From positions 89,652,001 to 89,716,000 of the forward strand of contig OZ287749.1 of the NCBI GenBank assembly GCA_965649765.1: a stretch of 64,000 nucleotides of DNA, given 5' to 3'. Made by a program: the position numbers and the translations under genes. This stretch comes from Bispira polyomma. Taxonomy: Eukaryota. The notes below the pieces were generated by a model. It was not told the DNA's origin. It did not search any database and was given only the letters and a program-made list of their open reading frames with translations. This document shows, piece after piece, positions 4,528 through 64,000 of this stretch. Position 1 is the stretch's first letter. Every line of letters begins with the position of its first letter.

Positions 4528-6410
4528 TGTATAGGTGGGTGTGTTTACTAAGATTTTAGGTGACCAAGTTGTTCTCTTATATATAGGTGGGCGTGTTTAC
4601 TGAGATGTTGGGTGACCAAGTTGTTCTCTATATATAGGTGGGCGTGTTTACTGAGATGTTGGGTGACCCACTTGTTCTCCATATATAGGTGGTGTGTTTA
4701 CTGAGATGTTGGGTGACCTAGTTCTCTATATATAGGTGGGCGTGTTTACTGAGATGTTGGGTGATCAAGTTGTTCTATATATATAGGTGAGTGTGTTTAC
4801 TGAGTTGTTGGGTGACCTACTTGCTTTCGATATATAGGTGAGTGTGTTTACTGAGATGTTGGGTGACCTAGTTCTCTATATATAGGTGGGCGTGTTTACT
4901 GAGATGTTGGGTGATCAAGTTGTTCTATATATATAGGTGAGTGTGTTTACTGAGTTGTTGGGTGACCTACTTGCTTTCGATATATAGGTGAGTGTGTTTA
5001 CTAAGATGTTGAGCGACCTACTTGTTTTCTATATATAGGTGGGTGTGTTTACTGAGATGTTGGGTGACCTACTTGTTTTCTATATATAGGTGGGCGTGTT
5101 TACGGAGATGTTGGGTGACCTACTTGTTCTCTATATGTAGATGGGTGTGTTTACTGAGATGTTGGGTGACCTACTTGTTTTCTATATATAGATGGGTGTG
5201 TTTACTGAGATGTTGGGTGACGTACTTGTTTTCTATATATAGGTGGGTGTGTTTACTGAGATGTTGGGTGACCTACTTGTTCTATATATATAGGATGGTG
5301 TGTTTACTGAGATGTTGGGTGACCTAGTTGTTCTCTATATATAGGTGGGCGTGTTTACTGAGATGTTGGGTGATCAAGTTGTTCTATATATATAGGTGAG
5401 TGTGTTTACTAAGATGTTTGGTGACCTACTTGTTTTCTATATGTAGGTGGGTGTGTTTACTGAGATGTTGGGCGACCAAGTTGTTCTCTATTTATAGGTG
5501 GGTGTGTTTACTGAGATGTTGGGTGACCCGCTTGTTCTATATATAGGCGGGTGTGTTTACTGAGATGTTGGGTGACCTACTTGTTTTCTATATGTATAGG
5601 TGGGTGTGTTTACTAAGATGTTGAGCGACCTACTTGTTTTCTATAAATAGGTGGGTTTGTTTACTGAGTTGTTCGATGACCCACTTGTTCTATATATATA
5701 GGTGGGCGTGTTTATTGAGATAATGGGTGACCTACTTGTTCTGTACATATAGGTGGGTGTGTTTACTGAGTTGTTCGATGACCCACTTGTTCTATATATA
5801 AAGGTTGGTGTGTTTACTGAGTTGTTGGGTGACCTACTTGCTTTCGATATATAGGTGAGTGTGTTTACTAAGATGTTGAGCGACCTACTTGTTTTCTATA
5901 TATAGGTGGGTGTGTTTACTGAGATGTTGGGTGACCAAATTGCTCTCTATATACAAGTGGATGTGTTTACTGAGATGTTGGGTGACCAAGTTGTTCTCTA
6001 TATACAAGTGGGCGTGTTTATTGAGATGTTGGGTGACCTACTTGTTCTGTACATATAGGTGGGTGTCTTTACTGAGTTGTTCGATGACCCACTTGTTCTT
6101 TTTTATAGGTGGGCATGTTTATTGAGATAATGGGTGACATACCTGTTCTGTACATATAGGTGGGTGTGTTTACTGAGTTGTTCGATGACCCACTTGTTCT
6201 ATATATATATAGGTGGACGTGTTTATTGAGATGTTGGGTGACCTACTTGTTCTGTATATATAGGTGGGTGTGTTTACTGAGATGTTGGATGACCTAGATG
6301 TTCTCTATATATACGTAGGTGTGTTTACTGAGATGTTGGGTGACCTACTTGTTCTCTATATAGAGGTGGGTGTGTTTACTGAGATGTTGGGTTACCTACT
6401 TGTTATTGTG
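4528..6410. repeat. 51-bp minisatellite, ~37 copies
   Basis: Unit ATAGGTGGGTGTGTTTACTGAGATGTTGGGTGACCTACTTGTTCTCTATAT; explains the 17-aa-repeat ORFs. Confidence 0.97.
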
Positions 6411-13513: not shown

Positions 13514-14295
13514 GTCATGTATACCACCTATAATTCCCTTGAGCCATGTATACAACTTATAATTCCATTGAGCCATGTATACCACCTATAATTCCCTTGA
13601 GTCATGTATACCACCTATAATTCCCTTGAGTCATGTATACCACCTATAATTCCCTTGAGTCATGTATACCATCTATAATTCCCTTGAGTCATGTATACCA
13701 CCTATAATTCCCTTGAGTCATGTATACCACTTATAATTCCCTTGAGTCATGTATACCACTTGTAATTCCCTTGAATCATGTATACCATCTATAATTCCAT
13801 TGAGCCATGTATACCATCTATAATTCCCTTGAGCCATGTATACAACTTATAATTCCCTTGAATCATGTATACCACCTATAATTTCCTTGAGTCAAATATA
13901 CTACCTATAATTCCCTGGAGTCATGTATACCACCTATAATTCCCTTGAGTCATGTATACCACCTATAATTCCCTAGAGTCATGTAATACCACCTATAATT
14001 CCCTTGAGTCATGTATACCACCTATAATTCCCTAGAGCCATGTAATACTACCTATAATTCCCTTGAGTCATGTATACCACTTATAATTCCCTTGAGTCAT
14101 GTATACCACCTATAATTCCCTTGAGTCAAATATACCACCTATAATTCCCTTGAGTTATGTATACCACCTATAATTCCCTTGAGTCATGTATACCACCTAT
14201 AATTCCCTTGAGTCATGTATACCATCTATAATTCCCTTGAGTCATGTATACCACCTATAATTCCCTAGAGTCATGTAATACCACCTATAATTCTC
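13514..14295. repeat. 29-bp minisatellite, ~27 copies
   Basis: Unit CCCTTGAGTCATGTATACCACCTATAATT. Confidence 0.97.
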
Positions 14296-15169
14296 TACCT
14301 AATAACAGATTACCATATAGGTAGTAATTTTAGTGAACTGCCGAGCCATGCCTTGTGTGCACAGTCACTCCGACAGCCTCTCAAAATGCACACTTTTATC
14401 ATTACCAGTAGTTGTTCTAGAACTGGTTTACCAACTTAACCTTCTCTTAGTTTGCATTTATGTTCATATAAAATGGTCTACCGTGGTCTTGGAATTATAC
14501 TCTCAAGTAATGGCCCAATGTAAACAACGTACCATGCATAGACATTTTTTATGGTATGGTTCCAAATTTGAGACAGCACTACGCATGTCTGCTATTGATT
14601 CTGGGTAAAGGTTGCCCCCTACTAGTCACTTCATTCATTACAAAAAAAAAAAAATAATGGCAAATTTTTATATTATTGTATTTGGAAATTTCAGATGTCA
14701 TATTAAAAGTCGCCTGTCAGTTGTTCTTATAATAATTAACTATTAAACAATTAGGTACGTTGAAACAACACACATTTAAAATAATTGCAAAACAAATTGA
14801 CCGATATATGTGAAATAAGGGAGCATGTGTAACCAATAATGCACCAGATATACCCAGTGAACTCTTTAACTCAAAAAGGTCAATTATACTTGGTGCTTTA
14901 TGTTGAGTTGGAACATTGAGCCAAAATACGTGTTTCCCTGCCAATGCGCATTGTTTCATTTTAGAAAACCGTATAGTTTAAATATAATTATATATAAATC
15001 TTAAAATATACAACTACCACCGAGACATTTTATTCACAAATAGAAACAGCTGGTTAAAAATCTGGTTTTAATATCACACGTTAGATGTAATTAAATCAGA
15101 CCATCAGTACAGGTCAACCAAAATATATTACCCCTCAACTTCCTATTTCTCCTCATCTCTTCTGTTGTT

Positions 15170-35000: not shown

Positions 35001-38000
35001 TAATGTTTCCAGCAGTAATAAATTATAATCACTGTGAAATTTGACCTGAGTAACAAATAATAATATTGTTTCTTTAACCTTCAAATAGTTGTTGATGTAA
35101 ATGCCTAATATTATTGTTTTCTTTAACTTGCAAATAATTGTCGATACAAACGTCCAATATTATTGTTTTCTTTAACTTTACAATTTTTGTTGCTTAGAAA
35201 TAAGTATTCTATATCACCACTTGCTGTGTATATATCCCCCTTTTTGTTCAAATTATGTGATGTAACATTATAATACATCACATAATTTAACTTTATTATT
35301 AAATTCTATACTTTTCTAAATTAAAAAAATATATCAAATCCTAACTTAATTATTTTTAATAACATTATGAAATATCACACTTTACTAAATTTTAAATAAA
35401 TCAAATCCTTAAGAAATTATCTTGAGTTTGAGTACATTATTAAATCCTATATTTTCCAAATTGTAAATAAAATCTTAATTTTGTCATATGTCATATCCTC
35501 AGTAAATGTTCTGTGTTTCCTTGGTTAATTTGTGTTTGTTGTGTCTATTTCTTTCTTTCAATGTCATGTGTGGGTATTAACTTCTATATATTGTTCTAAT
35601 TCTAAAATATAAAACCTAACTGTTTATAATCTCCTTTCTTTTAATATTAATACTAAGTCAGCCAATAATTGGTGTTTGCTATTCTATACATATATGTGTG
35701 GCTTTCCATTTTAATATTGCACCCCACATCTCTTTTGTCCGTTTTAATATTTACATTTGTTGTTGATATATACTTGTTTGAAATGTCATTTATTGTGTTT
35801 CCATTATTGTGTTTTCCACTCTATTAAAATAACTTCGATCAACTCCTGACCTGGGTTTGCCAGTAAAATCAGTAGGATTAAGATTAGAGGATGACCTCGA
35901 CCATGACCTGAAAGGCAAATGACCTTGACCTTGGTTTACAAACCTGCACTCTTTTTGAGTTGGTTGAATTAGTTGTAAGGTAAAATTGCATAGGTGTCCT
36001 AACAAAGAAATCCTTGAACCTAGGCTGCAATATCTCACTTGCTCACGACTCCGACTATACAGTGTGCTCGGTTTACACTACTAGATTGTGAAAACTTAAG
36101 GTTGGACTATCCAGAAAGAATATTACAGTAACAGCTTTTGGTCGGTGGCTGGGTTGGACCACGGGAAATGGGGCAGAGTGAATTGGTTGGTCGGTGGGTA
36201 ATCGGCCAGTGTTGTCCCAGCTAGTGGGTGGTAGGGGAACCCAGAGTACCAAGATGAGTTCTGGTTAGGTGGGATAGTTTCAACTCTTGGTCTATGGTCT
36301 TGTCGACCTAATCGACATGGTGGCAGCAAACGGAAAGTATGAATAACTAGCGTCAGTGGGTGATAGGTTAAATCCTATATAGATAGAAGATAGACAGGCA
36401 GATACATGGTGGAGTAGAAACCATCGGAAGGGGATACGACAAAGAGGTCGGGTCCACAGTTAGCAGCACCCTTCCCGGGCTCTTCTCCTCCGGTGGTGCG
36501 CCACCCTCCCGGGAAGCAGCACTGAGCAGTGGTAGTGCGGGGTTCCGGCCAGGCATCCGGTAGAGTGTGTTGGGTCGGCACCGGCGGTCCCCTTCAGGCC
36601 GTGGCGGGGCCGTTCTCCCTCGAGGGCTCGGGGCAACAAGGGGGGGTTCGATCCCTCCCCCCCGGATGGAGAAGAGCGGACGGCGGACGGGGTAGCGCCC
36701 CGTCCCGCTACACAGGGCTCACAATAATCTGTCTTTTTATAGATCTTTACCTGGACAGATCTAGGGCTCACAGTCCTGTATCAATTTGTCCTTACCTGGA
36801 TATATCCAGGGATCACAGTCCTCTGTCTATTTATAGATCATTACCTTGAGAGATCCAGGGCTTACAGCCTTGTATATATTTGTCCTTACCTGAACTGATC
36901 CAGGGCTCAAAGTCCTGTATATATTTGTCCTTACCTTCACAGATCTAGGTTTCTCAATCCTCTGTCTATTTATAGATCTTTACCTAGAGAGATCCAGGGC
37001 TCACAGTCCTGTATATATTTGTCCTTACCTTCACAGATCCAGAGCTCTCAATCCTCTGTCTATTTATAGATTTTGACCTGGAGAGATCCAAGGCTCACAA
37101 TCCTGTATCTATTTGTCCTTACCTGGACATATCCAGAGCTTACAATCCTCTGTCTATTTTTAAATCTTTACCTGGACAGATCCAGGGCTCACAGTTTCGT
37201 ATATGTTTGTCCTTACCTGGATATATCCAGGGCTCACAGTCCTGTGTCTATTTATAGATCATTACCAGGACAGATCCAGGCTTTAAAGTCCTATATCTAT
37301 TTGTCCTTACCTGGACACGTCTAGGCATCATAGTCCTGTGTCTATTTATAAATCCTTACCTGGACAGGGCCAGGGCTCGCACTCCTGATTCTCTACTTCG
37401 TCCCCCACACATTCCAGATCTAGGTCTCCTTTGTCACACGTCCTACTCCGGGTTTGTGCCCCGCCCCCACAGCTCACTGTGCAGTCATTCCAATCCGACC
37501 ACGGCTGCCATGTACCGGCTGTCACTGCAGAAGTTAGATACATAATATGTGTAATCTGTTTAACAAATATATCTGGATGTAGAGGAACTTAGTGGTGAAG
37601 TGGTAAGGCACTCGTCTCTAACTTCTGCAATCATGGGCTTGAATTTCAGTGATTGCATAGATTTGGTGATAAGAATTAACAGGTTAGATGCTCTAAAGGA
37701 GTATGTATTGTTTTTCTCATGGTGCACGAAATATAGTTGCACAGATCAGTTGTGACAGCTTTTGCTATTTATATTGAGTTCATAGTAGCTTTCAACAACT
37801 ATATGCACTCATATTACAGGTAGCTTATGGAAGGTGAAAGTAAAACATGCTCGTTGGTCAAGATTTCTGTTTTAAAAACCACCGCCCAGCAGCATGTCAA
37901 CCGTCAACTTTGCTAGATACATGCCGGAATAAAGATTCAAACTCACAACTGCAGAGGTGAAAGGCAAGAACATTACCTCTACAGCCCCAAGGTCGCCAGA

Positions 38001-49645: not shown

Positions 49646-51610
49646 GATAGAAACTGGGAGGTATTACAAGAAAAAAATTTAATGAAAGAATATGTAAACT
49701 TTGTAAATATCCATTTCCTGTGTATCTGTCCTGTTTTAGAAAATATTAATTTAATCAGTTATTATAAATTGGGTATAAATAAAACAATTGGTTTTCTGGA
49801 TCAGTTTCACTAAATATTGTATGATAAAATTAAAATAGTAGCTAATTTGGTATCAGAAATGTGGGAAAACAGAAATTTGTTACTGGTAAATTTTAAGCAA
49901 TTTAGGTATAATTATTGTTAAATTGCCACTTTAATCAGATTAATAGTGACTAATAAGCCCATTAGGGTTGGGTAATATCTTGTCAATGTATAACATTTTA
50001 TTTCTTTTTTGCATCTATACTATATCACTATAATGAATGAAACAATATATAAATAGAATGGTAATACCTGCTAGGCGAGCTGCTCCTAAAAACAAATTCC
50101 TCCTTGTTCAGAAATATAACTCCAAAGTACACAGGTCAAAGGTTCACTTTGATAAAAGTTTTGCAAATGATGCTCCTACTTTCTACAATAGTTTAGTATA
50201 ACACATTAGAACAGCTCCATCCATACATTCCTTCCGGCATAGTTTAAAGACCTATCTGTTCAATGGTGTATTCGCTTCATAGTATCTTTACTGTTCTAAG
50301 TGGACGACTTCCTTCTGTCAATCAATAATGATTTTTGGCTCTGGTTTTGTGTTTTTTTTTTGCGCCCTAGAATTTGTTACAACAAATATAAGCACTGAAA
50401 AAGTCTGATATAATAATAGTAGACTATTAAAAATAACAATTATTCCGGAAAAATGATTTTTTGTGAATAAACATACAGATGGCTCTGGTTAAGCATCATG
50501 TTTGTTACATACAAACAGCCAAACTTCTTTGTATATTTAATTATCATGAGATTGAGGTTACTGGGAACTATGCACATTTTACTAATCCGTGTCTTGATAA
50601 TTATAATAATTTATAATTCTCATACCAGTATTTATATTTATTGTATGTAATGTTTAAGTCCTCAAAAGACTGCTTTACTACTTCAGAAATATTTACAGGA
50701 AGTAAGCTACCAATTTAGACGCCTGCCTCCAGGCCGTATGAAATGTCACATGCGATTAATGGTCATTTTACAGCACCAGAACTTTTTTTAAATGACGCCC
50801 AACTGCTTAGTCAACATTTTATTTGGTATGAAAATTACATATTGTTTTTTGGATCCTTTTCCTGGCATATTGTACTGATTTAAGAGTGATACATTACCTA
50901 AGTTTGAAATGGTCCACCTATAGTGGCTATTTCAGATTGTCTCCCGGTGTTTATAGGTCTCTTAAAATGAAACTAAAGAATGCAAGTTAGATTTGAAGTA
51001 GTATAATCAGTTCTGAAAGTTTGGAATGTGACGGCAAGTGTTAGGACACATTGATAGTATATGTTCTGAAGACATCTGTGTGTTAATAAAAGTTATGTTT
51101 GTAACAACAACACGTTTATTCAATCTTACTAAACAAGTACACTTCATAAGTTTTTATATGTATTTTAATGTCAACACGCGGTCATGTGCCTTCACTCTCG
51201 CTGATCTACTCTCTATAAACTAGCCATCTATATCAACACAGTCTGATTTACCTTGAACTGTTTTCAATGTTAAAAATATACATTGTGTTACTCATAAAGA
51301 CACAAACCTAAAGTTTTATTGGTTCATGTAAAATAAGTCGCATAGGAAATCTCGAACTAGAATGGGTTGGAGCAGGTTATATTTGTCCTTAACATCCTCT
51401 TTTGAAGTCAAATGGAGGTATAGATCGATCCTTATACATAGAATATTATTGGTTTTAGAGTTGAAAGATAAATAACACAGGGGGTGCAAGACTGTGTGTC
51501 TATTGTATGCACAGAATATTATAATCAAGGTAAGGCTTGGATCTATCAAACTTAAATTCACTATCCTTGCAAGCAATACTCTTGTGTCTGCAGCACTTTT
51601 GTCGGGTATA

Positions 51611-54600
51611 GAGGGTTTTCAGCGACAACGGCTAAATTTGCGGCTAAATTAGGAGGCGCCGTGTTGGAGGGACTGCAGGCAAAATTAACACAAAATAAAC
51701 GTGTGAGCGACTTAAGGCCTTTAGAAATCTAGATTTATCATGAAGTTATATATGGCATTAAATTAATGATCATCTTAATAATATATATTTCACTATAAGG
51801 GATAACAGGCGATTTAGCTAAAATATTATATTATCGCCCATTAAAGCATCAACACTTACAGCTGCTTCTCGCGTTTGTGAATTCAATCCCGGTCAGAATT
51901 TTGCTCAAAAACGTAAGTGCACAAAACACATACCACATAATGTAGTTTATAAGATTGTTATGTATCAAATTGTTCGTCTTATTCTTCAGATTCAAATGAT
52001 GACAGAATTTTAAAAATCGGTCCAGGAATAAGAAAGCTATGGTGTTCAGAATGAAATGCCATATCATTTCAATTTAATTTACTGCCTCTGGTTATAATTG
52101 GTCAGTCAAATTTTTAATCACATTCATATTGGTGGCGCTGGCTTTGGCCTATGTACCCTTGTCCATCTCAAAATTCACATTGACCTAATTTGTATTGATC
52201 TGACTTTGTTAAGGCTTTAGTAACGTTAACATAAAAACACGACAGTGATAAAGTATGATGCTTTACGAATGCACATTTCTACTCTGTATACCAACTATGA
52301 TGGCTTTAAAAGTATACTTTAGGGACGTTTTTAGCTATTCTTATGTGTCCAGACAAATTAAAAGGTTAACACTTTGCCATAAAACCACAAAAACAACTAT
52401 ATAACGATCCTTGTATTGTGACGTCACACAATTTGAAATCTATAGTGGAACGTCATATTTGTAAACAATTCTCGCAGAGAGCCCCTTCTATTGTGACGCA
52501 ATACAAGTATTGATCCAACACAAATGCAGACATTATATACTCTAAACATCTTTAGAAAACATGTATATTATTTTGAATGAATTAGATTTTTAAATAGGTT
52601 TCCCTATTTTATATAAACAAAGAATAAAAAATATCGTTCTGTTCAGAAGAGTGTAACTTTAATGTTTTTCTGAAATTAGCAGTGTTTTTGTGCTTTATTT
52701 GAAAAACTAATTCATTCAAAATAATGCTGATGTTTTCCTTATTCTATTCATGTACAATACTTCAGTATTGATTCCTTTTTAGTATATGAATTGTGTCACG
52801 TTTGTGAAGCATGCACTTTGAAAATATTACCCATTTTAGTTACACTATGACACACTGCTATATGTATTGTATGTCTCAAGATATCAATGAAAATAATACT
52901 TAAAATATATGAATTAGTATATAATTAAAATATATGTCATTCTTTGTTATTTCTAATCATGAAAATGTAAGTATATTATCCATAAATCGGGTCTAAGGCC
53001 ACAAAGAAAAAGTTGTGTAGTTTCTGAGAAGCTCGAGCACACATAACGTTGTTATCGGCAATCGTTTTATGTGTTTACGTCACTAAACCCTTAATTACTG
53101 TGTCGATATCCAGATTTTTTTACCTTCACAACATTTCAACCCATTTTTTTCTGAGACTGTTCGACTTGTATTTTAAAGTTCGGCCTAAAATTCGTTGGCC
53201 GATAACTCAGACAATATTAAAAGTAAAACAAATTTGAAAATATAGTGAGGAAGTTTAGTTCATTGTGGTTATTGCTCTTTTTTTGCATCACAATCCATTG
53301 AGAAGTGGTTGAGATATTTAACTTTAAAGATGGATAGCCATTTTGATATGTGTTTATACGTTTTCCTGGTATGGATTACAAATGATAATGTATGTTGGTC
53401 AAAGGCGCCCAATTTGCATAAAATTCTTTCATCGTCGCCCATATAAACATGCTTCACTAAAGACCTTTTTTTATTAATAGATGTATATGCTGGTCAGTCA
53501 TTGCTTTAATAAGCAATATAAGTTAATGTTATGGAAACTGACGAAGACGTCGTCACTTTATTAATAGATGTATACTTCCACTTCCTTCCACTTCCTTCCT
53601 TACGACTTTGCAATTTCCACGGACTTAATGATTGGACTAATGATTCTGCTGTTGCGCTTTAGAAGATGCCTAGCATCAATAAAGCGCGTTAAAAATCCAT
53701 AATAATAATAATAATAATATGCTGGCCAGTCATTGCTCCATCAAACAATATTTAAATGAGCAGTTCACAGAAATTGACGAAAGCGGTTTTATTCTATTAA
53801 ATAGATATATATGTTTTTATAGAGTAGTGTTAATTGATGAAATTAACTGTATAAAAAAACTTATAAAAAAAATAATAGTAGGTTGAATCATCTTGAAAAA
53901 GAAAGAATCGAAACGTACTGAAGGTAGAAACTTCAGGTAATCACTGTGTCGACAGGAGTGACAGTTGCCTGAATCACTGTATAGTTGGCAGTGAATATTG
54001 AAAAGATAACTGTCGATAGATCACTGTATTATTAGCAGCGGTAAACATATAAATACTGTATCAAGAACAGTGTTAGCTTTAGCACTGTGTTGACAGCGGT
54101 AAAAATAATATTAATTGTATTAAATTATACCAATAGAACTTTATAGAAGTACAGAATTTGTTAAATCACTGTGTCTATAATATTGACAGTGGGTTTTCGT
54201 CATATTTCTTGGTTATTTGAAATTGTTGGAAATTTTGTATTATATATTAGAGTAACTGATAAATTGATATTGTTGAAATATAAAGTATTGAAGTAAATTG
54301 ATTGAAAACTAAATTTTACCAGTGAGCAAATTCCTGGCCATAGTATATAAATATATGAAAAAATTGATCATATGGGTTGAATTTTAGGGTGGATAATTAA
54401 TTAAATAGTGATGGCGTAACAATAACCATATACCTTTAAATCTTTATAAATCGTGTATGAATTTTTCTTAGAACCAGTTTAGTTTATAATTAGAACAAAT
54501 AATACCCGGTGTGTATTAACGTTTCCAGTGGTGGTCTGACTATTTTTTTTCTCATTCAGGGTTATTGAACATCAAACAACAATCTGACAAAGAAATCGAT

Positions 54601-55474
54601 TGGTGAGTATTTCTTAATTGATGGAAACGTGGGAATTCCTGAAGAAAAAGGCAGTTACGTCATGGTGATACTGAAGATGGGACAGTAAAGTCAATTTCCA
54701 GATGATTGACGAATGATTCATCAACACAGATGCCTGCGAATTTTATGCAATATTATGGAGTATTAAATAAATAGTATAACATTGAAAATTTGCAGTGAGA
54801 GATTTTTTAGCTTTTCTTCCGCACTGGCGGCCGCCGTGTGCTGCACTCGCAGATTATGGTTACATCGTTTGCAGTGCCGCCCTGGTGAGTAAACCGCTCC
54901 GGAACCCCATTACATTTATAATACCTTATGACACAAAAATCAGCAGTTATTTATCTAAATCGTGGCAAATAGATACTCGAAAATTTATGATTCACAGGAC
55001 CTGCAATTGTAGCGATTAAAATGTTTTATCTAACCTATATAACACTTTGAAACATGGACGACAATATAGTGTAATTTTACAAAAGTTTAATGGGAATATC
55101 GTCCTTTAACAATAAAGCTAATCTTTTCACAAAGAATCAATACTTTTGCATCGTATGTCAAAGTTTGAGGCCATTATATGGGATAATAACTGAGAATTTA
55201 CATATTTTGACAGCTCACTTATGCTGGTTTGTTTTCCTTTGTATATGGACGATAATATAAGATATGTTGCAACTTCATGACAAATAAACCTGTAAAATAC
55301 TAAACAAAATATGAAACTAAGGCAAATATACTGCTTCAAACTTTAGTTGGTTCTAAATAACCTAATGTTATTTATAACAGTAATTTTACCTTCTTGGTTA
55401 AAATTCCTTAAAAGACCGTGGAGTCCCTCCAAGATGGCGCTACTTCCGGCTAAGCTAACGTCGTGAAAACCCTC
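51611..55474. mobile_element. 3.9-kb non-autonomous TIR DNA transposon (GAG..CTC termini, TATA flanks; Sola2-like or ISL2EU/Harbinger-like)
   Basis: TATA|GAGGGTTTTCAGCGAC...GGCGCCGTGTTGGAGGGACT vs AGTCCCTCCAAGATGGCGCT...GTCGTGAAAACCCTC|TATA; no transposase ORF. Confidence 0.8.
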
Positions 55475-55480
55475 TATATA

Positions 55481-58400
55481 CACGGGATCACAGTTCCGAA
55501 ATCCGCACACGCAAAACCGCTAGTTCCGTTTCCGTTGGCGAGTAAACAAACCTTTCAAAGTTTAAAGAATGGCGGTGTTATGAGAATCAAATAACATAAA
55601 TTAATCCCTTATTAATCACAATAAAGTTGCATGTGTAGTAATATGTGCTGCAGTATATATTTTACGAATTCGTTAATTTAAATTTAGATGACATTGAGTT
55701 AAATAGCACATTTGCAAATAATTTCTCTAATTTCGCTCACCTAAATAAGCCGATTTATGGTATTCAGATCATCCATTTTTAAACATAAATATCTCCGTTG
55801 TTTCTGGACAGATTTTAATGGAACAAAAAACACAGTACTGGCAATATAGTAAGCCTTCTCCCCATATTTTTATTATTTTTTTATCTTTAGTAATGACTGA
55901 GTTTATAAATAATCGGTCTTTAGTGTTTTTTGTGTGTGCAAAACCCAGCAACTGCAATTATACTCTAGTACCTGGTAACTTAGCACAAATAAAAAGTTTG
56001 TATGACAGGACATTATTTGAGCTGCTGAATTTGTAATAAATGTAATAAAATATTTAATATAAAGATAAAATATTAATATTATTTACTATATAAATATTGA
56101 TATATCACCATCTTATTAAGATGATTTTAATAGCAAATTTAATACATAGAAAAATCTTATCTCAATATCTAGAATTAAGTCCCACAAAATTCATTGAAGG
56201 GTGATGACATTTATTTAAATAAAAATTCATGTAATACTTTTGTGGTTTATTGTTCATAGTTATATATCATCTAATGTGTCAGTAAGTTTTGTCGGCGAGT
56301 TGTTGTCTGTGAGTCGATTTGTCGGCAGCCTGCATGTATAATTCCAAAATCTCATATGCTGTTGAAAAAGGAATTATTGTAGTTTCCAATTGTTTTTATT
56401 GAAATAAAATCCAACGAGTATTAGTGAAGATTTTTATTGTACTGTACCATAGAAATTTTGATAAATCGCCATTTTAAAATGAATTTGAATAGATATGTTA
56501 GTTAATTACTTCCAATCTTCTCCTGTGGTCAGAAATAATACAATTATTAAACAGAAGAATTTCAGAACACTAATCAGAGCTGTAATAAATATAATATACA
56601 CATAAAATATAAATAATAAAGAACAGCCTAAATAAACTAACAATAAGAATAATAGTACACACCATTTGTGTATTTTAAAAGTGGTTCAGAACAGAGTCTT
56701 AACTCTCAAACATAAAATAGTCTTATTTTCATAGAGGAAATCAACAGGTAATAATAATTGAAAAATTTATATTATAAATAATAATAATAATAGGGTAGTT
56801 GGTCATAATTTTCTGCTCTACCGTACAAACCATCAGGCCTTTAGCAAGTCTACTGACAACTTTCCCATATACATGCCCGGCTCGAGATTTGAACTCACAA
56901 TCTACCACTAACACATACAGAGGACCAGATACAGACATAAACATAGGATGACAACTTAAAATGGTGGTCCTCTGTTATTGGGTCTTATCCCAGTGTCAAG
57001 TTAAAGAACCTGGGGAGTTGATCAATGGTCATCCTCAAGCATTTCTCATCAGGTAGGAGAATGGCAGTTACTGGTGCTGGTTGGCTGTCCTTGGGCAGTC
57101 AAGATAGATTTAATTAGTGCTTTGAATACCAGATAATTGTTGATACATAAATTCATCAGATGATTTAAGCAGCTTTTGACAATTAATATATTTCAGGCAC
57201 ATTATGCTGTTGACGTTTGATGAATGTTTGTTGTAAATAACTTGTAAAATGATGCTAAATAAATTCAAAATTAATTTTGGTAAACAAATTAAAAGTACCA
57301 ATTTTATTAATAAAATAAGACAAATACAGAAGTAGCTTAGAGTCTTCTAATATACCACCCTGGACACTCCAACTCCCTTATATGGAAACAGAGTGAAGAA
57401 TAATTGTCCAATATATTATTTAATTAAAGAAAGGTAGTTAGTCAAGGTTTTCTGCAGACCACCAGCCTTTAGCAAGTCTACTGCCAATTTAATACATGCC
57501 AGGTTTAAGATTTAAACTAAGAACCAGAGAGGTAGGAGGTAAGTTGCCATAGGATGACCATTTAAAATGATTATTAGCTTTATAGGTTGAAAATTTTAAA
57601 TTCTCGCAATTTCTGATTTAAATGGAAAATTATTGTTTAGTATGGGCTTAATGTCGCTTTCAACACATTTACAAATGGATATCAAAGAAAGGTATATATA
57701 TTTGGTCAAGGTTTTCTGTTCTTCAAACCATCAGCCTTCAGCACGTTTACTGCCAACTTTATTACATACATGCCAGGACCAAGATTCCAACCCACCACTA
57801 TTGGGGTGTGACGTTAGCATGTTACCACTGAGGTATTCTAGTGTGAAATACCAAATATATTTTGTTTTGACTGATACTTTAATCTTAATAAATTTTTATA
57901 TATGTAACTCTTGAAAGCTACTCCAAATACATATTTCATATCTGTCAACCATATCGAAATATGGTGTTTTCCAGATATTTGCCAAAATAACTCGCTTTCA
58001 TTTGCAAGTAAACAAACTAGCTAAATGGCGGCTCGATGTTACGGCAATTAATGTAAAAAATAAGTATTTCTCACTTATTATACGATATAAACATGTCAAA
58101 TTTTCACAAAGATACAAAATAATTTATTCTTTGTAAAAAATATAACTTTAATGATGAAAGACGATATTCCCATTCAACTTTTGTAACAAATAGTATATTT
58201 TTGCCCATGTTAATACAAGGTACACGAAAATTTGAAATAGTTATTCCTTTGCAAGTAAAGCTGCTGCAACTCTGACACTTATATGATGTTAAAGATGAAA
58301 TTTTATACTTTTTGTCTGTCTTTATTTGAAAAAAATCCATGCAATATTAAGGAAAATGTCGATGGTTGAAATATGTATTTTTTTGATTTTATATAATCCT

Positions 58401-61400
58401 AATATTTTCGGCCTACCTCATATTTTCGGCCCATGTTTTTGGTCTTAAATAAAGGTTAAATTATTGTCTGTAAACAAATAGATGCTTTCCTAATTTTGAA
58501 TTTATTCAAGTAAACCAGTATCAGTTTATTTTAAAACTTAATTTTATTAAATTGCCTAATAATTTATACGACTTGGCTTGTGCCAGGATATCATGGATCG
58601 ACTCAAAGAAAAAAAGGCCTTTGCAACAATAACAAAAAAATTTGTATTACAAGCAATTCAAACCATAAGTGTTGATTATTGGCTTAATAGGCCGAAAATA
58701 GGGTAAATCTTCATACAAGAAGCCACAGTCTACAGATTTGACATCTATATAAAGTGACGAAATTTTTAAGTAATATTAAAGTAAGATTAGTGTTTTATTG
58801 TGTAGTCGGTGTAATACAAATAATATATCTTATTGTTGCAAAGGCCTTTTTTTCTTTAAGTCGATCCACGATATCCTGGCACAAGCCACGTTGTATAAAT
58901 TATTATATAGTGTATTGGTCTAAGACAAAGAGAGAGTTACACATATAATTTTTTTACATAACTGAGATAATACTCCATAAATTTTTATTCACTAAAAACC
59001 AACATAGTTACTTCAAAATAAACATTGACTTATCAGAGTTCACCTTTAAAGGGGTTTCACTGCATTTATTTGCATATAGATTACAATATAAAATTGTCAT
59101 TAAAGGTCATTAAATTAATACAATAATGAATTGATTTCATTTGCAAGAATTTTCACCAGATAATTTATATTTAACAAATCTATGTCTTTAGACTACATTA
59201 ATTTCTTTCTATATTACCATCCAAAAAATTTAAAAACGCCATATTTTGATATGGTTGACAGTTATGAAATATGTCTTTGGAGTAGCTTAGAAGAGTCACA
59301 TATATAAAAAGTAATTAAGATTAAAATATCAGTCCAAACAAAATATATTTGATATTTTACACTAAAATACCTTAGTGGTAACATGCTAACCCGACACCCC
59401 AACAGTGGTGGGTTTGAATCTTTGTCCTGGCATGTATGTAATAAAGTTGCCAGTAAACTTGCTGAAGGCTGGTGGTTTGCGGAACAGAAAACCTTGACCA
59501 ACTATATATACCTTTCTTTTATTTATTTCAAATTCACCAATAAAGAGCCAGTCAAGTTACAAATGTGTTGAAAGCAAAATATTAAGCCCATACTAAACCA
59601 GAATTTTCCAATCAAGTTAAAAATTAAGAGAAAGTAAGCCACATTTTAAATTATAATATATTAACATCATTTTACAAATGATTTATGACAGTCATCGGAA
59701 TTCAAGAGCATGATGTTCCTGAAATATATTGTCAGAAGCTGCTTAAATCATCTGGTGAATGCTTGTATCTGGTCCTCTGCATTGCTAATTTTAGTTATTT
59801 TTTTCCAAGTACAGCCAACCAGCACCAGGTACTGTCTTTCTCCTACCTGTACAAGAATGCTTGAGAATGGCCATTTATCAACTCCCAAGTTTATTTAACC
59901 TGCGACTAGGATAGGACCCAATGACTGAAAACCAGCATTTTAAGTGGTCATCCTATATGGTAATATCTGCCTCCCACCTGTGCAGTTGTTGGTTCAAATC
60001 TTAAACCAGGCATGTATAAAGTTGGCAGTGGACTTGCTAAAGGCTGGTGGTCTGCAGAAAACATCGACTAACAACCTTCCTGTGATTTCCTTCACCAGTT
60101 AACTGCCAGTTTTTCAGGCCTAATATTGTATAATCACTTAATTAGTAGTAGGATGTTTAACTGATATGAAAAAATATATTAATTGGCCAATTATTTTTCA
60201 CTTTGTTTTTATATAAGGGCGTTAGAGTGTCCAGGGCATTAAATTTGAAGTTACTACTTCTATATTTGTCCAATTCTATTATTAATATTGTTTCCTAAGT
60301 TTTTTTTACCACAATTACATTTGTATTTATAAGCACCATTTAAAAGTTATTTATTCAAACAGTCTTCAGAAGTCAACAGCATGATGTGCCTAAAATGTAG
60401 TCAGAAGCTGGTTAAATTATCTGATAAAATGACAAAAATTAAGCTGATATCTAATATCCATAAGACTTCCTTCCTGGAATATGCTTGAAGTTGATTCACT
60501 ACCTGTTTGTTTTTTTACACTCATGTATCCACTAATATCATGTATTCAAAGCACTAATTATCCTTTATTGACTGTCCAAGAAGAGCCAATCAGCACTAGT
60601 AACTGTCATTCTCCTACCTAAAGAGAAATGATTGAGGATGATTATTGAACTTGATGACTATGGATCAATTCCCAAGGACAGACAACAAGCACCAGTAACT
60701 GCCATTCTTCTACCTGATGAGAAATGCTTGAGGATGACCATTGATCAACTCCCCAGGTTCTTTAACCTGCCACTGGGATAAGACCTAAAAACAGAGGACC
60801 ACAATTTTAAGTGGTCATCCCATGTATATGCCTGTATCTGGTCCTCTGTATGTGTTAGTGGTAGATTGTGGGTTCAAATTTTAAACCGGACATGTATATG
60901 GGAAAGTTGTCAGTAGCCTTGCTGAAGGGCTGATGGTTTGTACAGTAGAGCAGAAAATCATAATCAACTACCCTATTATTATTATTATTTATAATATAAA
61001 TTTTTCAATTACTATTACCTGTTGATTTCCTCTATGAAAATAAGACTATTTTATGTCTGAGAGTTAAGACTGTTCTGAAGTCGACTACTTTCAAAATACA
61101 CAAATGGTGTGTACTATTATTCTTATTGTTAGTTTAATTTAGGCTGTTCTTTATTATTTATATTTTATGTTTACATTATATTTATTACAGCTCTAATTAG
61201 TGTTCTGAAATGCTAATAGTTATAATTGTATTTTTTCTTACCACACACGAAAGTTGGAATTAATTAACTAACATATTTATTCAAATTCATTTTAAAACGG
61301 CGATTTATCAAAATTTCTATGGTACGATAAAATCTTCACTAATAATTCCTTTTTCTACAGCATTTCAAATTTTAGAATTACATGCAGGTTGCCAACAAAT

Positions 61401-62257
61401 TGACTCGCAGACAACAAGTCACCGACAAAACTTGCTGAAATATTTAATGATATATAATTATAATAAGATATATAACTATGAACAATAAACCACGAAACTA
61501 TAATATAAATTAATATTTTAATAAATGTCATCACCCTTTAATGAATTTTGTGGGACTTAACTCTAGATACTGAGATAAGTTTTTTTATGTATTAAATTAG
61601 CTATTAAAATCATCCTAAAAAGATGGTAATATATCAATATTTATATGGTAAATAATATTAATATTTTATCTTTAAATTAAATATTTCATTACATTTATTA
61701 CTTATTCAGCAGCCCAAATAATACCCTGACATACAAATTTTTTATTCTTGCTAAGTTACCAGTTACTAGAGTATAATTCCAGTTGCTCGGGTTTGCACAC
61801 CAAAAAAACACACCAAAAACCGATTATTTATTTACTCAGTAATCACTTAAGATAAAAAATAAATGAAACTATGGCGAGAAAGCTTATTTTATTGTGATTA
61901 CTGTGCTTTTTGTTTCATTAAAATCTGTTAAGAAACAACGGAGATATTCAAGTTTAAAAATGGATGATCTGAATACCATAAATCGGCTTATTTAGGTGGG
62001 CGAAATTAGAGAAGAGATTTGCAAATGTACTATTTCACACAGTGTCATCTTATTTTAAATAAAGGAATTCGTAAAATATATACTGCAGCACAATTTAGTA
62101 CTATACATGCAACTTCATTGTGATTAATAAAGGAATAATTTAAGTTATTTCATTATCGTAACACCGCTATTCTTTGAAGTTTGAAAGGTTTGTTTACTCG
62201 CCAACGGAAACAGAACTACGGTCGTGCACATGCGCTCTTCGGAACTGTGATCTCGTG
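55481..62257. mobile_element. ~6.8-kb imperfect palindrome / foldback element, CAC..GTG termini, TA flanks
   Basis: TA|CACGGGATCACAGTTCCGAA / TTCGGAACTGTGATCTCGTG|TA; arms align in reverse complement 55481-57100 vs 60670-62257, 57150-57560 vs 59940-60430, 57590-57970 vs 59230-59650, 58560-58630 vs 58830-58905. Confidence 0.9.
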
Positions 62258-62298
62258 TATTCATAAGCCAATTTTAGTAATGCACTTTGCACTTTGTA

Positions 62299-63315
62299 CA
62301 GGGAGGTAAAAATCGCCTAAAATCACCCAAAATCACCTAAATCTTGGGAGGTGGCTCTAAAATCGCCTAAATTCACAGAGGTAGCTTGAAAATAGCCTAA
62401 ATCTTGGGAGGTAGCTTGAAAATCGCCTAAATCTTGGGAGGTAGCTTGAAAATCGCCTAAATCTTGGGAGGTAGCTTGAAAATCGCCTGAATCTTGGGAG
62501 GTAGCTCAAAAATCGCCCAAATCTTGGGAGGTAATATATAGGGAATTAATTTCATAATTAATAATTAATTTCATAATTAATAATTAATTTCATAATTAAT
62601 AATTAATCTCATAATTAATCTCATAATTAATTTTCTAATTGACTTTCATAAGGAATTAATTTTGTATGAATGTATTATTATATGCTTTCCACTAAATCAC
62701 TATTGTATTGGGTGTATTGTTTTATTTATTCTTCATCCCATTTGTGGATTATAATATACAGTCCAGGATTTAATTTTGTATTTATGTATTCTTATATGTA
62801 GTGTTATATTTATATTTATTCTTCATTCGATTTGGGAATTATATAATATACAGTATAGGAATTATTACGGTATTTTCACATTTATTCTCCATATTTATTT
62901 AGTCTATATATATATTGTCTATATTGTCATATCAAAGAAGCTATGCAAGATTTAGTTATCCAATTAGTTGATTAGAAGTGCTGATGCAGGGTATACTTGT
63001 ATAATTGGATACCACCATAAAGTGAAAAGGTGATTGCAATTATTTCTGTGTCATGGGATTCTATAAAATTAATCCTCATCAAAGAAGTTATGCAATATTT
63101 AATTATCCTTTCATGTTAAAGATCATAGTCCTGACAAACATACACAAACATAAAAGAATTTAAATATGCCTTTCATGTTAAAAAACATTTTATACATCTA
63201 CCTCCGTGGATTCAGGCGATTTTAGGCGATTTTACCTCCGTACGGAGCTACCTTCCAAGATCTAGGCGATTTTAGGCGATTTTACCTCCGTGACGGAGCT
63301 CCGTACGGAGCTCCG
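62299..63315. mobile_element. ~1-kb TIR element with tandem subterminal repeats
   Basis: CAGGGAGGTAAAAATCGCCTAAAATC and 30-bp AAAATCGCCTAAATCTTGGGAGGTAGCTTG array (62299-62535), mirrored by GGCGATTTTAGGCGATTTTACCTCCGTG (63200-63292). Confidence 0.75.
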
Positions 63316-64000
63316 AGTTTTAGAAACCACCGTTCTTGGGTCCCCCGGCCATGTAGTTTGTGCTACGTTTAGTATCAACCATATTTCACCACAAAGCGAA
63401 ATGTAAATATATGTAATGTTTATTTATAACAGAATGAGCAAGTGCTGTGACCCCTCATTGCACAATATCAATAAACATAAGTGCTTTTGAAATTTGTTAA
63501 GGTCTTAGTAGTTGTTATTCTTTAGAAGTGCAGATATCATTGCCAGGGTGTGAGTGATAATAGAGGATATTTTGTGATTTTTCAGTTGCATTCTCGTGTC
63601 CGGCAAATCCGGGGAGTTCACATACGGGCCATTTGTAAGTGAAAACATTGGCGTCCGCGAAATATTGAAGAAAAGCTAGAAAGTCTCTCACTTCAAATTT
63701 TCAATGTGCTACTATTTTTTTATTACTCCATAATATTATTTCAAACTTTGCAGATAAGGTAGAAAATATGTTACTTCAACTAAAATTACGAATTTTATGG
63801 ATAAATTACAACTTTTCCATTGAACATTTTACAAAATATTGTATTTTCGCCCATATAACACCACCGCTGATAAACAATTTTTAATCACAGTTGTTTGGTA
63901 TAAAAGTAATATTTTCCTGTACAAAACCTAGCATTAAATTTCAAATATACAAGGAAGCTAGATATATTCATTATTTCCAAAGAGTCATTGCTGAATATAT

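Follow-up and report, generated by a model that had tools for sequence, protein, structure and literature searches.

The window, a stretch of 64,000 nucleotides from Bispira polyomma (assembly GCA_965649765.1, contig OZ287749.1, positions 89,652,001 to 89,716,000), contains a 6.8-kb palindrome, which raises the question of whether a single mobile element with giant inverted arms or the meeting of separate elements gave rise to it. The original prediction had taken the interval for one foldback element with terminal inverted repeats (TIRs) of ~3 kb, formed by template switching or arm-to-arm conversion. Our analysis leaves very little doubt about the identity of its parts, which are two opposite-facing copies of one non-autonomous ISL2EU-type family, arranged tail to tail.

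The palindrome itself is real in the assembly. Self-comparison yielded an inverted partner for 5622 of the 6779 bases of the interval, the best of 20 shuffles reaching 50 bits, and in a self-BLAST the main inverted match pairs 55478-57095 with 60671-62260 (85% identity with gaps, 1899 bits). Further inward, paired blocks are found at 57152-57421/60172-60428, 57422-57569/59936-60087 and 57601-57970/59233-59632, and ~1.26 kb (57971-59232) have no partner in the left arm, an internal hairpin excepted. The extensive self-complementarity that had been described thus holds, but not its centre, which had been put at ~58700: the structural joint lies at 57991/57992, and it was the internal hairpin at 58557-58905 that was mistaken for the centre. 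Likewise, the termini are transposon ends as proposed, but with other letters, reading AT-ACACG...CGTGT-AT (55480-62258) and not TA-CAC...GTG-TA. A TA duplication with CAC ends, as in Tc1/mariner or EnSpm elements, was ruled out by empty host-repeat sites, and an origin of the ends in a duplicated promoter or first exon of a gene was rejected as well, the termini being multi-copy with sharp borders. As predicted, there is no ORF, the longest stop-to-stop frame in the interval comprising at most 104 amino acids, and an Rfam search of 50000-64000 returned no match at E<=1. The parts of the composite are as follows.

55478..55479, no strand: AT target dinucleotide, left
55480..55498, plus strand: 19-bp TIR, left end of copy A
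55480..57992, plus strand: arm A, subfamily beta, first 2530 bp of an element of 3.7 kb; 97.3% identical to L028 over 2534 columns
57991..57992, no strand: A/B junction with a CT microhomology of 2 bp; single copy in the assembly
57991..62258, minus strand: copy B, subfamily alpha, 4.3 kb; 98.3% identical to the alpha majority sequence over 4285 columns
58557..58905, no strand: internal hairpin with ~95-bp arms, an alpha feature, one arm of which is missing in beta
59646..60054, minus strand: alpha-specific internal duplication, present in the alpha majority sequence
62240..62258, minus strand: 19-bp TIR, left end of copy B
62259..62260, no strand: AT target dinucleotide, right

Arm A lacks the final ~1.15 kb of the beta element, and copy B is near-complete, missing only its terminal ~33 bp including the right TIR. 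The arms are 85% alike with gaps and otherwise 89% alike, i.e. 11% apart. To assign them we used 116 positions in the first 1.6 kb that have one fixed state in 10 alpha copies and another in 3 beta copies. Arm A carries the beta state at 112 of these positions, the alpha state at two and another state at two; arm B has the alpha state at 115, another state at one and the beta state at none. Within the same 1.6 kb no private state is common to arms A and B alone, and in a tree the two arms fall on opposite sides of a branch with 100/100 support, the bootstrap not being fully settled. As the arms carry beta and alpha diagnostic states, respectively, and share no private changes, their divergence is the divergence of the subfamilies.

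Over these 1.6 kb, the data decide against a single foldback element produced through template switching, arm conversion or the insertion of a hybrid element from sister chromatids; for this locus we regard such an origin as extremely improbable. Some support for such processes comes from other dimers of the family, since private changes are shared by the arms at L023 (10), L024 (5), L025 (4) and L126 (4) and the host spacer of L024 is inverted; in the window, by contrast, the arms belong to different subfamilies with no shared private state over the first 1.6 kb, and arm A shows only two isolated alpha states among the 116 sites, arm B no beta state. The notion of ~3-kb TIRs is not supported either, because the true TIR measures 19 bp and normal copies have two unlike ends. 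What did prove correct is that the element is non-autonomous and that its termini, according to a genome search of the ends, are multi-copy.

A mis-joining of two copies from different places during assembly is very unlikely as well. In none of three sequencing runs (two samples of one study, which may represent other individuals) did a contig bridge 57991, a gap that carries no weight either way, and one contig ran into a normal beta element. On the other hand, the copies are 11% apart and overlap by 2 bp, a constellation that assemblers would seldom join; elsewhere, the family has ten similar junctions whose structure makes biological sense, and the window is free of N bases.

The SINE-like pieces that had been noticed in both arms, all three of which we found mirrored, bear on the same question, since they had been read as evidence that the arms were copied after SINE insertion.

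56790..57100, minus strand: SINE relic in arm A, mirrored at 60670-60960; cargo of the family
57422..57569, minus strand: SINE relic in arm A, mirrored at 59936-60087
57680..57850, minus strand: SINE relic in arm A with a tRNA-like head, mirrored at ~59360-59520

The head of the relic at 57680-57850 presumably contains A-box- and B-box-like motifs of the Pol III consensus. Free relatives with 70-84% identity and unrelated flanks occur at 37853-37959 of the window and at L135, L133 and L037, whereas in a genome search with a SINE piece the best 40 matches scored were all element copies, full-length and at least 92% identical. The SINE status of the relics is therefore based on the dispersed free copies. 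Judging from these comparisons, the internal pieces are tRNA-derived SINE relics and old cargo of the family's copies; the prediction was thus right in calling them relics, but not in having the arms copied locally after the insertions, as the relics ride in the family's copies. The extra duplications that had been reported for the right arm were found at 59646-60054 and 60523-60648. These duplications, like the divergence of the arms, the SINE relics and the 58.7-kb hairpin, were inherited from the subfamilies.

We then characterized the family itself. In 20 stretches that we fetched, ordinary copies are 3.7-4.4 kb long and possess two unlike ends that have a short TIR in common, which in the family comprises 19 bp and is perfect in alpha and in the autonomous partner. 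The left terminus is present in many copies with a sharp border (best 40 of 1095 candidates scored), and exact pattern counts gave 150 matches for the 21-base end, 87 for the left end and 76 for the right end, from which we estimate a family size of ~90 copies in the 1.04-Gb genome. Alpha elements (4.3 kb) are ~98.3% and beta elements (3.7 kb) 96.6-98.1% alike, with ~89% identity between the subfamilies; a more distant type also exists. Two copies with identical flanks lie 215 kb apart (L187 and L188, C4:39.96 and 40.18 Mb), reflecting a segmental duplication or a haplotype duplication in the assembly. RT fragments or other long reading frames are present as inserted cargo at L021, L026, L029, L111, L119, L125, L126 and L177.

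AT flanks both ends in 37 of 42 spans from a left to a right end, a few of the spans being mispaired neighbours. Two copies (L122 and L127) occupy one and the same site of a host repeat but point in opposite directions. A search for empty copies of this site gave 948 matches; among the first 100 listed, a single AT is present in 96 and ATAT in one. Of 128 unique ends, 79 have A and 39 have T as the base adjoining the AT, which is a bias and not a strict rule, and the TIR starts with AC, its first base being A in 126 of the 128 ends.

The autonomous partner is 9.6 kb in length, has the same TIR and shares the terminal 73-74 bp on the left and 58-59 bp on the right with the family. In the partner copy L112 we detected a DDE_Tnp_4 domain (E 3.5e-33) and, on the opposite strand, YqaJ (PF09588, E 1e-10), and in the copy L124 both DDE_Tnp_4 and HTH_Tnp_4 scored above the cut-off. 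Two separate transposase frames gave no THAP hit, and by our own reading the motif looks split between frames. Four transposase copies are at least 92% identical (L112, L123/L124, L169/L170 and L178), and as each of them is interrupted by a stop or frameshift or is truncated, there is no intact partner in this assembly. Two of the four are joined tail to tail to an alpha copy, and L178 is a hybrid whose left end is of the alpha type. L177 (9.6 kb), which by its length had been considered an autonomous copy, does not match the partner. The search listed 124 transposase matches, so that many other Harbinger-like families are present.

AT duplication together with transposase and YqaJ genes defines ISL2EU according to passages of PMC4482050 and PMC9179366, and on the evidence of the AT duplication, the DDE/HTH transposase and the YqaJ gene we assign the family to ISL2EU from its sequence. 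As far as the ISL2EU group of PHIS (PIF/Harbinger-ISL2EU-Spy) is described in these passages, the resemblance includes the AT duplication, the A/T flank bias, the short TIR, the animal host and a partner that encodes a DDE_Tnp_4/HTH transposase and a YqaJ exonuclease (PMC4482050, PMC9179366). ISL2EU TIRs are given there as 6-259 bp long and usually beginning with GG, which is a tendency and not a rule (PMC4482050); here, the TIR starts with AC and not GG, and the partner has 9.6 kb as compared to a reported mean of 4.8 kb (PMC4482050, PMC9179366). The window copies differ further in being non-autonomous, having only the terminal 58-74 bp in common with the partner. Regarding the exonuclease of ISL2EU elements, we know of no established role.

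Having identified both parts, we considered how they came to be joined. The likeliest course is that one copy entered at or close to the other's right end, after which a central deletion took place. The second copy would have landed there in opposite orientation, guided by a transposase that would favour AT sites bordering the ends of transposons and CpG-rich clusters of motifs and would thereby make copies pile up. Beta may have come first and alpha second, which the identities within alpha (~98.3%) and beta (96.6-98.1%) faintly suggest. The two right ends, ~96% alike over ~570 bp, would then have folded into a tight hairpin and provoked a break, and repair at the 2-bp microhomology would have cost A ~1.15 kb and B 33 bp, leaving a composite that would be a relic without a function of its own. 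Tight palindromes cause breaks and deletions, an effect that weakens as the spacer grows and the similarity falls (passages of PMC7999016), and it is this general knowledge on which the hairpin-breakage step is based. Simple nesting with the remainder of A still in place was rejected, since no element sequence follows 62258, and the next 10 kb after the end of the window (L183) did not contain the remainder either.

AT is present on both outer sides of the composite, which also fits insertion as one unit: B might have inserted inside A elsewhere, and the composite might then have jumped on its two outward left ends as a nascent foldback element, leaving the right part of A behind. We consider this course of events unlikely, yet it has points in its favour, as both outer ends exhibit a full 19-bp TIR with AT next to it, the TIRs of left and right ends are identical over 19 bp, the deletion required at the junction would be small, the right end of the copy at L186 sits at an AT inside another copy, and a nested inverted composite of another family, termed family C here, was amplified at least four times. 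Against it speaks that the window junction is single-copy (its motif has one match in the genome), that the 11 tail-to-tail junctions of the family all differ with none seen amplified, and that the dimer at L025 is not a unit insertion. In the window, the sequence to the left of family C occurs only once, and on the right of the composite the first 30 bp of the flank have no other match.

The favoured route, insertion next to an existing end with subsequent deletion, can be compared with the other dimers of the family. Two like ends lie within 15 kb of each other in 12 of 100 end clusters, compared to 0.14 pairs expected by chance; the clusters were built from 99 left and 80 right ends, i.e. 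pattern matches plus 16 added ends, some with approximate positions. The 11 tail-to-tail junctions are those of the window, L021, L023, L024, L025, L115, L124, L126, L169, L171 and L186, of which L171 and L186 were seen with one outer end only. Since head-to-tail (L036/L181, L115, L173, L174 and L175) and head-to-head cases (L029/L176 and L171/L172) also occur, adjacency and not orientation is the rule. Individual stages of the route are found elsewhere: elements joined intact, end to end, and sharing one AT (L124), a 31-bp spacer (L024), and loss of the TIRs (L169, L171); large central deletions are present in L023, L025 and L115.

The dimers do not all have the same history. The shared private changes indicate that in L023, L024, L025 and L126 one arm derives from the other or has been converted, whereas the window and L021 have no such changes. 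In L024, whose copies are 99.3% alike, the 31-bp host spacer (4708-4738) is inverted relative to the empty site (L076, ~430-520), an outcome that fits what would be expected of hybrid element insertion or an arm flip (concepts in passages of PMC2775673), and in this outcome L024 resembles hybrid element insertion of the P element (PMC2775673). The two outer junctions of L025 lie at separate sites of a host repeat, which there has opposite orientations, so this dimer did not insert as a unit.

Double Ds is one of the compound and inverted-duplicate transposons. With alternative transposition and composite insertions of Ac/Ds in maize, as described in part of 10.1101/2020.01.07.897926, the dimers share the presence of inverted copies at one locus; unlike compound transposons, the window copies stem from two subfamilies, neither being a sister copy of the other. 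The Drosophila FB and Galileo elements are similar in their kilobase-long inverted arms, transposon termini and lack of coding capacity, but in passages of PMC2775673 their long TIRs are heritable in a mobile family and >99% alike within a copy, whereas the long arms in the window exist at one locus only and are 89% alike, each being 98% identical to copies elsewhere. Long TIRs were not found as a standing feature of the dispersed family, whose ordinary copies have unlike ends, the junction being single-copy. The locus, probably a dead relic, is an instructive case of how transposons with ordinary short TIRs can yield giant palindromes resembling foldback elements with no need for template switching. 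Annotation from structure would wrongly report a family with 3-kb TIRs here.

The frequency of dimers draws attention to target choice. A piece of the family's own TIR lies within 100 bp of 13 of the 128 unique ends, one case being doubtful and adjacent pairs being counted twice. The flanks contain 4.0 CpG per 100 bp as compared to a background of 1.8 (the window and two neighbouring 10-kb stretches), and the motifs ATGGCG and CCGGAA occur in 21 and 15 flanks versus 1.4 and 1.7 expected, respectively; the background is small, and the hot sites drew attention only in retrospect. In two other repeats, independent insertions used identical AT positions (L120/L122/L127 and L024/L025/L113, one of the repeats having 948 exact site matches). 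From these sequence features, the family likely prefers AT sites at transposon ends.

In the window, arm A itself directly follows another element.

51610..55475, plus strand: family C repeat with ends AGAGGGTTTTCA and AT on both sides; its right end adjoins arm A across ATAT

In the window and in L031, copies of different subfamilies lie directly against the right end of family C, which has 121 exact matches; in L170 this end has been entered. Family C, which shares a subterminal segment of ~150 bp (77% identity) with the right end of alpha, is likely another ISL2EU-type family, as judged by its sequence. It also forms a composite, in which an inverted copy of ~4.8 kb is nested in a short outer element. 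All four loci fetched (L199-L202; C2:81.00, C6:32.61, C6:33.72 and C6:41.53 Mb, C2 being the contig of the window) are 98-99% alike and have the inner junction in common while differing in the outer flank. In family C a pile-up thus became a mobile unit and was amplified at least four times.

Taken further, these findings raise the possibility, to which we give rather less than even weight, that this ISL2EU family is base-precise for AT sites at its own termini and at those of other transposons with many promoter-like motifs and thereby generates multi-kb palindromes at about one in ten loci, which might serve as raw material for long-armed or compound elements and perhaps for self-silencing hairpin RNA in an animal. 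A literature search found no report of such an insertion preference of ISL2EU, the one paper listed being on Spy, and among the papers listed for ISL2EU dimers none dealt with them. The reuse of AT sites at transposon ends by the little-studied ISL2EU elements may be of more value than the locus itself: if real, it would provide a rule of target choice that can be tested, and a natural series for the birth and defusing of palindromes in an animal genome that runs from the intact dimer through spacer inversion, loss of the TIRs and large central deletions to the amplified composite.

As to hairpin RNA, the original prediction had also suggested that the palindrome, if transcribed, could yield siRNAs against SINE families. 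That the composite is transcribed into hairpin RNA and thereby silences its own transposon family or SINEs appears highly improbable, although precedents exist in maize, where inverted duplications of Mu and of Ac/Ds give rise to silencing RNAs (Mu killer, Ac killer; passages of 10.1101/2020.01.07.897926). The arms offer 239 perfectly paired 21-mers and a longest perfect duplex of 57 bp, but this amounts to only 10% of the 2493 arm 21-mers; four of the paired 21-mers occur in the autonomous element, no arm 21-mer is found in four free SINE copies, and the arms are devoid of transposase sequence. Mu killer is likewise an inverted duplication of one transposon end; it differs in that it includes transposase and is transcribed, whereas the window holds no transposase and its arms are 11% mismatched (10.1101/2020.01.07.897926). 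Dimers of a single subfamily pair far better, with 2371 of 4183 21-mers in L024 and 2364 of 4145 in L126.

The surroundings of the composite are repeat-rich. An inverted 71-bp match of 90% identity brackets the region (54749-54819 and 63667-63737) and probably represents the ends of another repeat family. Starting 30 bp to the right of the composite, a multi-copy repeat with 30-bp tandem units, inverted ends and a truncated start extends from 62288 to 63340. Tandem arrays are located at 4530-6407 (units of ~51 bp), 13514-14297 (29/58 bp) and 36713-37387 (47/94 bp) of the window.
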